Origin: Octopus vulgaris
Taxonomy: Eukaryota
DNA: 64,000 bases
Reading direction: 5' to 3'
Assembly: GCA_951406725.2 (NCBI GenBank)
Contig: OX597820.1
Span: 38,564,001 to 38,628,000 of the forward strand
Position numbers and translations under genes: made by a program. The notes beneath the pieces are model-generated. The model saw only the letters and a list, made by a program, of their open reading frames with translations, was not told where the DNA came from and made no database searches. This document shows positions 2,237 to 61,101 of this stretch, piece after piece (within the stretch, counting starts at the first letter, position 1; each line of letters starts with the position of its first letter).

Positions 2237-3291
2237 TCGCGCACACACAGCACACATACATTCACACACACACACATTCACACACGCACACGCACATATA
2301 TACATATATATTAGTATATATGTGTACTAACGTGGCTATGTCGGCATTATATGTTCGTGAAAAAGTAAATTCTCCGTCAGCCAGTAAGTGGAAAACGTGT
2401 TAGATTAATAGTCAGATGAGTCAGATATTGAAATCATATATTTTCTTTTTTGTTGCATCTTGAATAGAAACTATAATTGTAGCACCATTGTTTGAACTAT
2501 CTTTTAGTGATGCCTATAAAGCATTTATGCAATTGTGATGTTTGCTTCCATGGATGTAAGCTGAAATTTGTGATCCAATGTAACGTATTGCACAAGCTTA
2601 TAAATTTTCCATGTCTTATATACCTGCAAGAACGATGTTACATTACAATAAAATCTCTTAATAAAATAATGCAGCTACAAAATATGATCAATCTGTCTGG
2701 TTGTATTATAATATTTCGCCATGCATAATGTTCCATTCAATTCTGGATACGATTGTTTTTTGCGGATTATTAAACACCAATTAACTTCCCGTCATTGATT
2801 CCACCTTCGTAAAAGATATAGATTGTTTATCTAGTCATTTACGTCATACTGTCTACCCAGCAAGTGTTGCGCACTTCCTTTTGATATATCTCGATGCTTT
2901 AAATTAAACGGATCCCATTGAATCACTACACACACACACACACACACACACGCACACACATATGTATACAAATATGTGTGTGTGCGTGCGTGTACATATA
3001 TGTACATATATATCTATATCTATCTATCTATCTATCTATCTATATATCTATATATATATATAATAGAAATATTAAAATAACTAAGTCTCTCTAAAAGAGA
3101 ATAGCGGCAGCGTTCCCGGAAAATAATAGTTATCGCCATACTAATATGGCATTCTTATAAAAATAAGAAAAAAGCTGTCCGCTTATTAGCTCCATGAGGC
3201 CATCGCCTTAAGTTAGCTATTTGATACACAAACTGTATCCATATAACCTTCGAACAAGGGAGGTCAGTCGCTCCACACTACTTGACCGGCA

Positions 3292-3333
3292 GCTACAGAC
3301 GCGTTTCGGGGTATTGCCCCTTTTCAATGCAGC
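3292..3333 (-). ncRNA. Minimal type I hammerhead ribozyme, U3-A8 core variant
   Basis: GCUGCA-UUGAAAA-GGGG caaua CCCC-GAAA-CGCG-UC-UGUAGC. Confidence 0.8.
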
Positions 3334-3686
3334 GTAGCCAGCCAGTAGGTTTCGCTTCCGACAATCTCTGTTCGATGGTTTTATTTACCTAGTTTCGGTG
3401 GAATACATCCACTTGTTTTCAATAATAGAAATATTAAAATAACTAAGTCTCTCTAAAAGAGAATAGCGGCAGCGTTCCCGGAAAATAATAGTTATCGCCA
3501 TACTAATATGGCATTCTTATAAAAATAAGAAAAAAGCTGTCCGCTTATTAGCTCCATGAGGCCATCGCCTTAAGTTAGCTATTTAATATTTCTATTATTG
3601 AAAACAAGTGGATGTATTCCACCGAAACTAGGTAAATAAAACCATCGAACAGAGATTGTCGGAAGCGACACCTACTGGCTGGCTAC

Positions 3687-3728
3687 GCTGCATTGAAAAG
3701 GGGCAATACCCCGAAACGCGTCTGTAGC
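3687..3728 (+). ncRNA. Minimal type I hammerhead ribozyme, U3-A8 core variant
   Basis: Same motif; stem I GCUGCA/UGUAGC, stem II GGGG/CCCC, palindromic ACGCGU stem III, GUC site. Confidence 0.8.
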
Positions 3729-4047
3729 TACCGGTCAAATAGTGTGGAGCGACTGACCTCCCTTGTTCGAAGATTATATGGATACAGTTTGTGTATCAAA
3801 TAGCTAACTTAAGGCGATGGCCTCATGGAGCTAATAAGCGGACAGCTTTTTTCTTATTTTTATAAGAATGCCATATTAGTATGGCGATAACTATTATTTT
3901 CCGGGAACGCTGCCGCTATTCTCTTTAGAGAGACTTAGTTATTTTAATATTTCTATCATTGAAAACAAGTGGATGTATTCCACCGAAACTAGGTAAATAA
4001 AACCATCGAACAGAGATTGTCGGAAGCGACACCTACTGGCTGGCTAC

Positions 4048-4089
4048 GCTGCATTGAAAAGGGGCAATACCCCGAAACGCGTCTGTAGC
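4048..4089 (+). ncRNA. Minimal type I hammerhead ribozyme, U3-A8 core variant
   Basis: Identical motif 361 bp downstream of the previous copy. Confidence 0.8.
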
Positions 4090-4312
4090 TGCCGGTCAAG
4101 TAGTGTGGAGCGACTGACCTCCCTTGTTCGAAGGTTATATGGATACAGTTTGTGTATCAAATAGCTAACTTAAGGCGATGGCCTCATGGAGCTAATAAGC
4201 GGACAGCTTTTTTCTTATTTTTATAAGAATGCCATATTAGTATGGCGATAACTATATATATATATATATATATATATATATATATATATATATATATAAT
4301 AATATATATATA

Positions 4313-5191
4313 GATATATAAAACTCAACTTGTGTGTCTGTGTGTGTATCTGTGTGTGTGTCTGTGTGTGTATCTGTGTGTGTGTCTGTGTGTGTATCTG
4401 TGTGTGTGTCTGTGTGTTTAACTTCCCGGCACATCTCCTCCTAGCCAACAAATCGTAGAAGCACCAAAAATGGGTGACTTAAATTTTAGGCGGATGAAAA
4501 TTGAACTGCGCTATTTCTGTTCCGAAATTCATCTCGCAAGTGCAAAAATCGATAATGTGTTTGTTTAGGCCTTATCCCATGCATTGAATAGTGAACTTTA
4601 CTCAGTCAGCTGTTTGACGTGAACTGTGTTCACCACGCGTGCAAGCATGCATATATTGCATGAAAAAAAAAATCAAGGTATAAAAACCAATCGCCGTAAA
4701 CATTGTAGAAATTCGGCAAAGAAATGAATTTTCGGGATGTAGCCTGGAGTTTTTTTTTCGTATTAATCGTTTGGACTTTGTGAATACATACCAATTGTTT
4801 TCATAACATTTTAAACGCTTTGAATTAAATGCGACCATTTTGCGTTGAGTCTGCAGTTTGAATCACTTTAACCAAATTTTAGCAGGCCGGATTTTTGATC
4901 ATCATGATACATCACCAGCGACTCCCTGAAACTCTCCCCTGAAATCCTCGTTGAGAAATACTGATCAAAAAGAATAATTCAACAATGCAATTATTTGATC
5001 AACAAAAATTTATGAAACGCTTCTACGTACTTCCTATTGAGGAAATGGAACACATAAGCGCAAAAATAGAGGGCATTAAATGCTTGATTTTAAAACCAAA
5101 ATAATTAAATTTTGATTGAACTTCATCCAAGTTTAGCTTAATTCGCGCGTGCATAGAACGCACGAGCGCACGAGCCGGGCAATACTGCTAG
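4313..5191 (+). mobile_element. Non-autonomous Helitron-like element
   Basis: TATATAAAA start, (TG/TCTG) microsatellite near the 5' end, 3' GCCGGG..CTGCTAG|T end resembling 59585-60107. Confidence 0.6.
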
Positions 5192-5814
5192 TATATATAT
5201 AATTAACAATATGCTTAAGAAAGGCCTTATGAGCTTTCTCATATATATTAACGTATCCCATTATTTGGTTTTAAGTTTAATTTCTATCCTTATCCTATAT
5301 ATTGATTCAAATTTTTTTCTAAATTTAATGTAATGAAATTGCCGAGTTATGAATTACTACCTTCCTTTCTTCTTCTAGTTATCACCTTTTCCTCATCAGT
5401 CAGTCTCTTACTAGAAGCCCTGAGATATATCGTTTTATGTAAATAAAGCTAAATATATGGTTCCAGTAAAATAAGTGTCTGGAAGATTGTCTGACATTAT
5501 TTGATTTATCACCATCAACTAGAACACAGTTGACAATTCCCCATGGATTCAATTCCAAATGATTGTAGACTACTGCTGCAAAAAAACATTCTAAATGTAA
5601 ATAACTACCTCACCAATCTTACATCGTTAACCCCATTATTTTTTTCTTCTACTCTCAAAATTATAGTAGGCTTAATAAGATATACATTATTTTCTAAATT
5701 CATTCTCCCACAAATATAACATGAGGAAACAAGGTAATTATTTTGGTTTCAAGCATTAATAGGAATTTGTTTAAAATGGTTTATCCTCTATGTTGGAAAT
5801 CCATACGGGCATCT

Positions 5815-59100: not shown

Positions 59101-59140
59101 AACACACACGCACATATATTTATATATATACATATATATT

Positions 59141-59357
59141 ATATTAATTAGAGACAAAACCACTATTATGCAAATCAAACAAAGAAAGACTTAAGCCAAT
59201 ACATAAAATAATTTATATAACTTAAATTTAATTAAAATAAGCACTAATAGTGGTTTTGTCTCTAATTAATATAATATAATATTTTACTATAAAATTGGAT
59301 TCAATCCTAAATCTGATTTTTCCCTGTAAATTTGGATTTATTCCCTAATATTTATTA
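59141..59357 (+). repeat. Short fold-back insert in (TA)n
   Basis: Same family and layout as 24832-25036. Confidence 0.75.
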
Positions 59358-59584
59358 TATATATATATATATATATATATATATATATATATATATATAT
59401 ATATATATATATACACATACATACATACATACATACATACACATACTTACCTATACATATATGTATGTATGTATGGATCTATATAAGTATAGAACACATA
59501 AACATACCTGTCTTAATATAAATGGCAAAGTCCACGTTCTCGACGAGTCACTGTCTCCAGTCAAAGTTTCATAAATGTTACGTA

Positions 59585-60107
59585 TCTCTCTATATATAAA
59601 CGGCAGTTTGTCTGTCTGTGTGTCTGTGTGTCTGTCAGGTTGTACCCTCACTCTGACCACGGCTTTCAACCGATTCTGATGAAACTTGACACACACATAG
59701 CCCAATGTCATAATTCAAAACTAACGCAGCGAAACTTTTGAAAAGTTCCCCCAGTTCTGAAAAAAATTGATAAATTCGACATGGAGTCGAGAATCTAAGC
59801 TTTTTATTTGCAACACATTTTCTGTTGTAGTTTTCGCAACTTGCAATCGATTTTCACCAAACGCATGGTGAAGCTTAATGTTACCATAAGAAACTTAATT
59901 CTGACGTTAGTTTTCCATGCAATACCTTACCGTTAAAAAAAATCGATAAAATCATGCCATTTTGGGAAATCGTGTTCAAATTCAAGATGACATATTTTCG
60001 ACAATATCTTTCACAAATTGGCAGGATTTTTTTTTAAATTCACAGCGAGCATCATGTCTGTTCCAGGGGCTCTTACATACCCGGGCAATGCCGGGCTATG
60101 CTGCTAG
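59585..60107 (+). mobile_element. Non-autonomous Helitron
   Basis: A|TC start, subterminal hairpin CCCGGGCAATGCCGGG, CTAG|T end. Confidence 0.8.
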
Positions 60108-60253
60108 TATATCTATAAAAGAATGGAGTAGGAGTCGATCATTTGTTATGGATAAAGGCAGTAGGTGGAAGGAATAGTTTAGCAGATTACAACTACCGTA
60201 AGCACCGCAACATATGTCGAATTGCCTGTTTCTGGTACTGACGAAAGCCCTAG

Positions 60254-60733
60254 AAATTTGCTTTACCAAATACAGAACTTTTAGAAATAGCAGCCAAAAA
60301 ATTTAGCCATTTCTTCTACTTTAAGAAGAGTCTCCCAGACAATGTATACTCATTCGTATGTTTTGAATTCGTTAGTACTGGATGTCGAAAATGGTTTGTT
60401 TGAGGTTACTCAGATCAGATGGGCATGTTCGAATTTTAGTGCTCTCAAATTTAAATTTAATGAAATCTCTGTGCTGATGACGGGAATGTTAGAATAGGGA
60501 CGTATTTCTAGCATCTCTATATCTGACTAACCCAGAAACATGTTCACAAGTAATCTAATTTCGAGTGAACTTTCGTTATTTTTTCCTCTATGTCTACGTG
60601 AATTGTTTTTGAGTATACATTGTCTGGGAGACTCTTCTTAAAGTAGAAGAAATAGCTAAATTTTTTGGCTGCTATTTCTAAAAGTTCGGTATGTGGTGTA
60701 AAGCAAATTTTTTCGCTGAACCCTAATTATATA
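60254..60733 (+). mobile_element. PLE pLTR-like fold-back insert with an internal hammerhead
   Basis: Arms 60254-60352 and 60610-60710, short tail. Confidence 0.8.
60470..60548 (+). ncRNA. Type I hammerhead ribozyme
   Basis: UGUG-CUGAUGA-cGGG..CCCa-GAAAC AU GUU-CACA; palindromic ACAUGU. Confidence 0.65.
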
Positions 60734-61034
60734 AAGTAATGTTTTATATATGTATATATATATAAAAGAAAATGAAGAAAATGCTGACAAAATAATTTAA
60801 GTAAGGGAGAGTGTATTTAATTAGGTGAAAGTTCTTTTTACCGGTTGCGCATTTGTTATGCTTATCAAAAGATATTTTTTTAAGAGAGATAGAGTTCCTT
60901 TCTGATAGATTTTTTTCTCTTATCCATATATATATATACATACATACATACATACACACACACATATATATATATGTATATGTATGTATATATATATATA
61001 TATATATATATATATATATATATATATATATATA

Positions 61035-61101
61035 TATTGTTATATTTCGGAATGGTCATATTGCCAGTTTAGCCAATAAAATCTTGCACAACAAATATTT
61101 A
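61035..61101 (+). mobile_element. ~65-bp minimal footprint of the 23199 PLE family
   Basis: Start of the inverted arm fused directly to the terminal AAATCTTGCACAACAAATATTTA. Confidence 0.8.

Follow-up and report, generated by a model that had tools for sequence, protein, structure and literature searches.

Penelope-like elements (PLEs) that carry a GIY-YIG endonuclease (EN+ PLEs) leave a characteristic insertion, described as an inverted, 5′-truncated copy with a one-sided tail of 30-40 bp and a bias toward (TA)n (PMC8557442; PMC3846280). A PLE protein from an anole cuts and extends both strands of AT-rich DNA in vitro; it begins reverse transcription at two neighbouring internal positions, between which the tail lies, and a dimeric form is predicted for it (PMC11167929), while self-priming from palindromic junctions has been suggested for the inverted junction (PMC3846280). 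PLEs have also been proposed as the mobilisers of retrozymes (PMC7761336; bioRxiv 10.64898/2026.07.22.740005), and Penelope elements that are short and non-autonomous find mention in 10.1101/596502. In Octopus vulgaris, 31 PLE families with recent activity and 893 recent but unclassified families of short interspersed elements (SINEs) have been counted, with SINEs making up 11.6% of the genome and most of their recent families unclassified (PMC13282606), and the families given for Octopus bimaculoides (supplement of PMC8557442) include a Hydra family with (TA)n as its target. Here we analyze a 64,000-nucleotide stretch of the O. vulgaris genome (assembly GCA_951406725.2, contig OX597820.1, positions 38,564,001 to 38,628,000; hereafter the window, with positions counted from its first letter), and identify ten insertions with inverted arms. 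We consider it likely that these are the work of endonuclease-bearing PLEs of several clades in the octopus genome, with each cut end priming its own complementary DNA (cDNA). We hold with about even confidence a further proposition: that one family, E2, is a very high-copy SINE-like element moved by a PLE and not by a long interspersed element (LINE), that E2 together with the retrozyme-like E1 gives direct footprints of PLE trans-mobilisation, and that insertions such as the one at 61034-61100 show a second, separately primed cDNA.

The AT-rich window (28-43% GC per 2 kb) is densely set with TA microsatellites. Scanned for inverted repeats without regard to TA context, and with partner arms allowed up to 4 kb apart, it yielded every insertion described here but that at 61034-61100, whose partner arm is absent within 4 kb. 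The ten insertions represent eight families (E1 to E8, with E3b a second copy of E3, and E4b of E4). With microsatellites removed, and counting inverted diagonals no more than 4 kb apart, the window contains 13 of at least 25 bp where all ten shuffles contain none, 16 of at least 19 bp against 0-2 per shuffle, and 35 of at least 14 bp against 3-6. A first-pass annotation of this stretch had placed inverted arms at these sites, and we observe one at each, far above the shuffle expectation. It had further described a direct arm and a tail of roughly 15-100 bp at all of them but E8. The inverted truncated copy and one-sided tail are clear in E1, E2, E3, E4 and E6, with firm tails of 25-104 bp (E1, 66-68; E2, 25; E3, 49; the E4 family, 73-77; E6, 104 bp), but E5, E7 and E8 have no firm tail and the insertion at 61034-61100 has no direct arm. 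The tail sits on the left in E1 and E5. The annotation counted at least seven families; we count eight, of which E6 and E7 may be kin and E5 may not be a PLE product.

A run of (TA)5 or longer lies within 12 bp of 14 of the 20 insertion ends, in 8 of the 10 insertions and 6 of the 8 families; the same holds for 1.6% of background positions and, among 15 other repeat copies, for 4 of their 30 ends. Since we set the insertion boundaries by eye, and partly at TA runs, this figure is inflated and somewhat circular; the enrichment itself is real. The view that most insertions sit in (TA)n thus stands for six families but not for E2 and E7, which have no TA run at either end.

The link to PLEs is most direct in two families with remnants of an open reading frame (ORF), in which a reverse transcriptase (RT) thumb and a GIY-YIG domain, or the latter only, can be recognized:

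23199-23314, minus strand: E3 tail-less inverted arm, equal to 24618-24733 at 114 of 116 positions, outer end in (TA)n
23311-24174, plus strand: E3 5′-truncated PLE ORF with RT thumb, CX4CxxC linker and GIY-YIG with CCHH
24570-24782, plus strand: E3 terminal repeat end, with a weak hammerhead at 24570-24609, the arm start at 24733 and the tail at 24734-24782
61034-61100: E3b, a 46-bp inverted arm (equal to 24688-24733), AAAA, then the last 23 bp of the tail (equal to 24760-24782)
37561-38588: E8, with a 19-bp exact inverted arm (14-19 bp, about 5 bp being TA-like), right end in (TA)n
37588-37863: E8 Hydra-type GIY-YIG C-terminus, 92 codons
38458-38540: E8 hammerhead

The E3 ORF is 90% identical over 203 amino acids to an O. 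vulgaris RT protein (P0001). Three longer relatives among 956 candidates (P0001-P0003) contain an RT with YVDD, two of them also DKSG, and a CX2-5CxxC linker; in E3 itself, the linker occupies residues 183-191 of a 309-amino-acid frame, with two Cys within the GIY-YIG core and the His downstream. By the motifs given in PMC8557442, E3 is thus assigned to the Neptune/Nematis type, an assignment that does not separate Neptune from Nematis. No RNA data set was listed as containing E3, which has no bearing on whether it is expressed. The E8 endonuclease has 780 protein matches at E ≤ 0.001, the closest being an O. sinensis protein at 89%. Among 150 relatives checked, mostly partial, 115 have CxxC-E-N-CxH and 19 have CxCX5C, and one of 658 amino acids (P0039) has an RT with DKT. 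E8 itself has CxxC/CxH, and its O. sinensis relative P0004 is without the internal Cys pair (no CCHH), so that the marks of E8, as predicted from its translation, are those of the Hydra clade. The first-pass annotation saw here a 14-bp end with little tail at 37566; the inverted end is present and we find no measurable tail, but an inverted end of 14 bp is by itself near chance, so E8 rests on its endonuclease ORF and its hammerhead. A telomerase-like RT and a GIY-YIG domain in one ORF were found for E3 and E8 only, by way of their relatives (P0001-P0003, P0039), the E3 and E8 copies being themselves truncated and all copies in the window being 5′-truncated. A tblastn comparison with 153 of these proteins gave no coding match in the other six families. 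Upstream of the TA run at 8045, the window also contains a decayed Hydra-type PLE remnant (6819-7538 and 9777-10192; thumb and endonuclease likeness, E 5e-8). A stretch of 416 bp from it recurs at 96.6% between two TA runs, and no inverted arm was detected in it.

Hammerhead ribozyme motifs provide the second link. Our scan for type I hammerheads with a score of at least 9, with 20 shuffled windows as a control, gave eight matches against about 0.3 per shuffled window, and seven of these eight lie in the insertions listed here, three in E1 and one each in E2, E3, E7 and E8. Predicted hammerheads are therefore present in five of the eight families, strong in E1, E2 and E8 and at the threshold in E3 and E7. 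Those in insertions all point outward along the arms, which marks the outer end of each arm as the 3′ side of the RNA. A whole-window Rfam search showed neither a hammerhead nor a tRNA among the best 150 of its 275 rows, nearly all of which were microsatellite-driven microRNA models, and none reached the gathering score. The two endonuclease remnants and the hammerheads in five of eight families uphold the PLE origin put forward in the first-pass annotation. Its picture of GIY-YIG PLEs accompanied by diverse non-coding passengers holds for the PLEs; most of the passengers, given the five families with a hammerhead, look like truncated PLE ends or their derivatives. A repeat with a hammerhead-like motif (5790-5975; core at 5819, long stem II) ends at the TA run at 5973, with a partial second copy at 2040-2194 (75%), and no inverted arm was detected at it.

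Two further families carry a hammerhead in a non-coding unit, and these are the ones in which the PLE-type architecture has the most to say about mobilisation in trans. The first, E1, is a head-to-head arrangement of tandem units:

3060-3584, minus strand: E1 arm with tail, holding about 1.45 copies of a hammerhead-bearing 361-bp repeat, outer end in (TA)n
3060-3127, minus strand: E1 tail, 66-68 bp
3582-4253, plus strand: E1 arm without tail, retrozyme-like, holding about 1.9 units of 361 bp in tandem, with its outer end in (TA)23
3687-3728, plus strand: E1 type I hammerhead with U3-A8 core covariation, with copies at 4048-4089 (plus) and 3292-3333 (minus)

The E1 arms are 99% identical, and the tandem units are consecutive, with hammerheads at 3693 and 4054. 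No long reading frame was found in the unit, and Pfam recognized no features of the E1 type. The U3-A8 covariation is the variant described for PLE hammerheads (PMC4209133). On these predicted features E1 meets the working definition of a non-LTR (long terminal repeat) retrozyme (bioRxiv 10.64898/2026.07.22.740005), a preprint in which the case for PLEs is argued from phylogeny and co-distribution and in whose text the word "tail" is absent. The inner E1 unit (3596-3956) shows three private G-to-A differences within 45 bp, none at a CpG, where the other two units agree, which suggests a template array of unlike units, or editing.

The second non-coding family, E2, joins a head with tRNA-like promoter boxes to a hammerhead-bearing 3′ module:

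21501-21787, minus strand: E2 arm without tail, which reaches the 5′ end of the tRNA-like head
21800-22135, plus strand: E2 tailed arm, with head, (AAT)n, hammerhead and tail
21802-21812 and 21847-21855, plus strand: E2 A box and B box, exact, 34 nt apart, in both arms
21870-21955, plus strand: E2 (AAT)n
22011-22056, plus strand: E2 hammerhead
22111-22135, plus strand: E2 tail, 25 bp
17267-17379: second E2-family locus, an inverted partial head joined to the 3′ module, ending without a tail

The two boxes are of the RNA polymerase III (Pol III) promoter type. The E2 arms are identical at 253 of 287 positions, and the three arms that contain the head (the E2 pair and 17267-17319) all end some 8-10 nt upstream of the A box, as expected of a Pol III transcript. 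We aligned the stretch 21950-22260 to the contigs of four runs with four organism labels, in which the 3′ module was present in 8675-15457 contigs per run, at a summed depth four to five orders of magnitude above that of the unique flank, a figure that is not a copy number. When the four best-supported rows of 3′ loose ends are taken from each run, all 16 lie at 22104-22110 or at 22134-22135, and these two end sites, about 25 nt apart, are used at nearly 1:1 (1426 inner and 1334 outer contigs in those rows). At the inner site, a 9-bp unit that varies in number makes the position less sharp. The flanks at these ends are unlike one another and AT-rich (agreement 0.41-0.46), and their consensus is not (TA)n, although TA-flanked contigs may have been filtered out or broken. 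Strand-switch joints at 22081 or 22084, in single contigs of three runs and with 30-37 letters on the short side, look as would short arms that start near 22110 with other junctions. The majority letters of the other copies restore Watson-Crick pairs in stem II of the hammerhead. At the second locus, the 3′ module begins at the 17320 junction within about 2 nt of the predicted hammerhead cut; since no pile of 5′ ends at that cut is present among the loose-end rows listed, this stays a single case. The tail of E2 is a unique sequence of 25 bp, with two end sites, and not a simple repeat, and we saw no target-site duplication at 21501/22135. ARAGORN called no tRNA in the head, and focused Rfam scans of E2 returned neither a tRNA nor a hammerhead. 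Old SINE heads are often missed by tRNA callers. A 20-base E2 motif had no match in prokaryote genomes or viral contigs, and one match in metagenomes (L001) that we attribute to chance, with no likeness beyond 22 bases. With its A and B boxes, (AAT)n, hammerhead and PLE-type double end, E2 is a candidate PLE-mobilised SINE. Octopus tRNA SINEs were reportedly treated by Ohshima and Okada in 1994, and the E2 head may already be named in the literature. Beside the second E2-family locus, a repeat at 16561-17107 (second copy at 52106-52420) lies within a long (TAT)n array.

The remaining families have no ORF:

24832-25033: E4, with arm 24832-24873, partner 24919-24960 and a tail of about 73 bp that contains a 13-bp hairpin; both flanks are (TA)n
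59135-59355: E4b, same family as E4 (about 79%), tail of about 77 bp
26862-27659: E5, a palindrome with arms of about 380 bp, centred on a TA run and full of microsatellites
57786-58080: E6, with arms 57786-57876 and 57886-57976 (89 of 91 positions) and a structured 104-bp tail, (TA)n on both sides
60254 to about 60733: E7, with arm 60254-60352 and partner 60610-60710 (96 of 99 positions), not in (TA)n
60470-60548: E7 hammerhead, long stem II

The outer 165 bp of E5 are 98.8% identical, its tail (15-30 bp) is not firm, and nor is the 3′ end of E7, with a tail of about 9-23 bp. In folding comparisons, the tails of E4 (z score -2.1) and E6 (-4.5) were more structured than shuffles, in windows chosen after the fact, and those of E2 (-0.5) and E3 (0.6) fold no better than shuffles, so we claim no common tail structure. 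Six short motifs of E2 to E7 had no match in the supplement of PMC8557442, and the three Octopus Naiad 3′ ends given there are unlike E4-E6 by eye. E3 and E4 lie end to end on one TA run (23199-25033), as successive PLE insertions into the same microsatellite. A 16-bp motif is present in E6 (57923-57938) and E7 (60665-60680), 30-38 nt inside the arm start, and again at 41691-41721; it is possibly a common cis signal or a coding relic, and on this likeness E6 and E7 may be related.

These insertions can be accounted for by one process. A PLE protein would cut AT-rich DNA, mostly (TA)n, on both strands; the outer start site would prime one cDNA, giving the tailed arm, and the inner site, 25-104 nt upstream, would prime the other, giving the tail-less arm. 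Both cDNAs would stop early or at the 5′ end of the RNA and join head to head through a few matching bases. The templates would be the ends of autonomous PLEs (E3, E8), probable PLE ends that lost their ORF by truncation (E4, E6, E7), and non-autonomous hammerhead RNAs, i.e., a retrozyme-like multimer for E1 and an RNA with a tRNA-type promoter and a hammerhead for E2. The structure of the insertions, the ORF remnants, the hammerhead motifs and the two 3′ ends are observed in the DNA itself, and from these we infer separate priming of the two arms and the copying of E1 and E2 in trans. Start points are fixed in the two families with independent copies, as had been predicted: E3 and E3b differ in their junctions but have the same arm start (24733) and tail end (24782), and E2 has the same two end sites across four runs. 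The accompanying offset from the 3′ end has itself already been published, as the two adjacent start sites of the anole element (PMC11167929).

What the first-pass annotation proposed for the second strand, a fold-back, fares less well. Under that explanation, which would still be PLE-made, the 3′ end of a cDNA begun at the tail end folds onto the same molecule, or an antisense template primes its own copying, and synthesis then runs back to a fixed stop before the tail is reached. Near-perfect hairpins with centres of 0-12 nt in E2, E5 and E6 are what it would produce, and self-priming from palindromic junctions has been proposed in print (PMC3846280); indeed the E5 and E6 hairpins fit self-priming equally well, whereas the symmetry of E2 would follow from both cDNAs reaching the same RNA 5′ end. 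The two parts of E3b, however, as resolved by alignment to E3, do not overlap, and nothing in the insertion could have served as the template of its inverted arm, a point in favour of two cDNAs primed separately. The tail-less arm of E1 (about 670 bp) likewise exceeds its possible template (about 460 bp of the partner upstream of the tail), the inner end of the arm in E3, E7 and E8 lies 0.26-1.3 kb from the 5′ end of its partner, and the E3 and E3b junctions have only 2-4 matching bases. Two cDNAs fit all of these insertions, and fold-back cannot account for E3b and fits E1, E3, E7 and E8 poorly, so we regard fold-back as unlikely, and the inverted arm is best read as a second first-strand cDNA. 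It is far less probable still, and already largely refuted, that the palindromes are assembly artefacts or chance repeat pairs. TA runs and palindromes are difficult to assemble, and unrelated inverted pairs do exist in the window (LINE ends 10975/13828 and SINE pairs 43112/44870 and 59025/61237, which we set aside as other things); but the arms show 1-12% divergence and asymmetric ends, contigs of three other runs contain the right junction of E2, with both end classes in all four, and no shuffle gave a 25-bp inverted match.

Two other alternatives concern single families. The set may be mixed, with E5, and possibly E4 and E6, not produced by PLEs: E5 would be host DNA copied in the opposite orientation by template switching at a self-complementary (TA)n run, and E4 a hairpin composite copied as a unit. 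For E5 we see the balance as level, and this is compatible with PLE-made insertions elsewhere: centred on a TA run, made of CA/TA/TG microsatellites and returning to a TA run, and with no hammerhead, ORF or second copy in the window, E5 bears no mark of a PLE beyond where it lies and how it is shaped, and an inverted duplication of host DNA at a TA run is just as likely. The alignment of E4 with E4b continues through the junction, so the two are possibly one composite copied twice; E4 and E6, on the other hand, have (TA)n on either side and tails that are sharp, one-sided and structured, and E6 has its 16-bp motif in common with the hammerhead-bearing E7, at a similar distance from the arm start. 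In the case of E2, the family may not be a SINE at all, its 3′ module being a truncated PLE end and its head and (AAT)n an ordinary SINE hit by a PLE, as a chimera of few copies. This is a serious possibility, to which we give somewhat less than even weight: our comparison across runs covered the 3′ module and not the head, and neither ARAGORN nor Rfam called the head a tRNA, which together keep a chimera of limited spread a live rival, and the link between head and hammerhead is seen at one locus (in two arms) and, rearranged, at 17267. Against it, three head arms end at about one point, 8-10 nt upstream of the A box, which is exact and followed 34 nt on by a B box, and even a chimera was copied with PLE geometry at least once.

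Several points weigh against our preferred explanation, i.e., PLE-made insertions with two separately primed cDNAs. Three of the eight families (E4, E5 and E6) have no ORF and, in their retained parts, no hammerhead, the lack of which may reflect truncation alone, and because E4 and E4b are possibly one composite, we dropped them as evidence for a fixed offset. The self-priming fit of E5 and E6 counts here also, as does the possibility that E3b could be a later internal deletion. The hammerhead scan was relaxed after motifs had been seen by eye in E3 and E7, its first version finding those of E1 and E2 only among the listed insertions, and Pfam places the E3 ORF in no family. For neither E1 nor E2 did we identify an autonomous partner, and no partner LINE with a common 3′ end was found for E2. 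Genome evidence outside the window consists of contigs of four runs for the E2 family only; these runs are not independent populations, the end sites were read from loose-end rows beyond which there are 812 more, and the contigs do not pair a tailed with a tail-less end in one insertion.

Other repeats in the window are of different kinds. A LINE RT frame of 491 amino acids lies at 10975-12519 (RVT_1, E 7e-31), and 3′ fragments of its family at 13445-13828 and 13945-14037 stand in opposite orientations among TA arrays, as separate insertions and not in the PLE pattern. At 33248-36461, a LINE RT in three broken frames (RVT_1) is followed by the C-terminal zf-RVT fragment of a second copy. Mariner/Tc1-like transposase remnants are located at 39837-40832, 54646-55350 and 63353-63748, with a Pfam Transposase_1 match at 40326-40829 only and the others recognized by eye. 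An old 206-bp palindrome at 20694-20899, possibly a decayed miniature inverted-repeat transposable element, was excluded from the insertions, being 70% identical between its halves, tail-less and without TA.

The mechanism is largely published and the insertions are real and mostly PLE-made; with the architecture already known, the broad claim adds members and not a mechanism. What the window may add is in the non-coding families. The mobiliser of hammerhead-bearing non-coding repeats has been argued in print from co-occurrence and phylogeny, and E1 and E2 carry the footprint itself. E2 would, if this is true, be the SINE-like partner of a PLE. Non-overlapping arms such as those of E3b make twin priming and fold-back countable in any octopus assembly, and the signature of tail and inverted arm can assign ORF-less octopus repeats to PLEs. 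Our literature search, whose coverage lay outside most subscription journals and Repbase, found no PLE-mobilised tRNA SINE and no twin priming in PLEs.

Compared with described systems, E3 resembles Neptune/Nematis PLEs in its C-terminal GIY-YIG, CX2-5CxxC linker, CCHH, DKSG in relatives and (TA)n target (PMC8557442), but unlike full elements of this type it is truncated. E8 is like the Hydra clade, including Hydra-1_Obim (PMC8557442), with CxxC/CxH beside the E and N, no CCHH in its relative, a hammerhead and a (TA)n target; its hammerhead is unlike that listed for Hydra-1_Obim, compared by eye, so E8 is probably another family. E1 is like non-LTR retrozymes in its non-coding tandem unit with a type I hammerhead per unit (PMC7761336; bioRxiv 10.64898/2026.07.22.740005), and unlike published retrozymes it carries the PLE footprint itself, with head-to-head arms, a tail and a TA target. 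E2 has its nearest precedent in the SINE-like hammerhead repeats of schistosomes, the Schistosoma Sm-alpha and Sj-alpha repeats, in which a Pol III-type promoter is likewise followed by a hammerhead (reviewed in PMC6765202); those are described as tandem, whereas E2 is arranged head to head, has its 3′ ends at two fixed sites and contains (AAT)n internally. The insertions as a whole are like those of EN+ PLEs (PMC3846280, Arkhipova et al. 2013; PMC8557442, Craig et al. 2021; PMC11167929, Frangieh et al. 2024) in the inverted truncated copy, the one-sided tail, the AT-rich or (TA)n target, the hammerhead near the 3′ end and the fixed ends. They differ from published EN+ PLEs in tails of 49, 66-68, 73-77 and 104 bp against 30-40 bp (PMC8557442; PMC3846280), in the non-overlapping arms of E3b, and in the presence of at least seven families within 64 kb.

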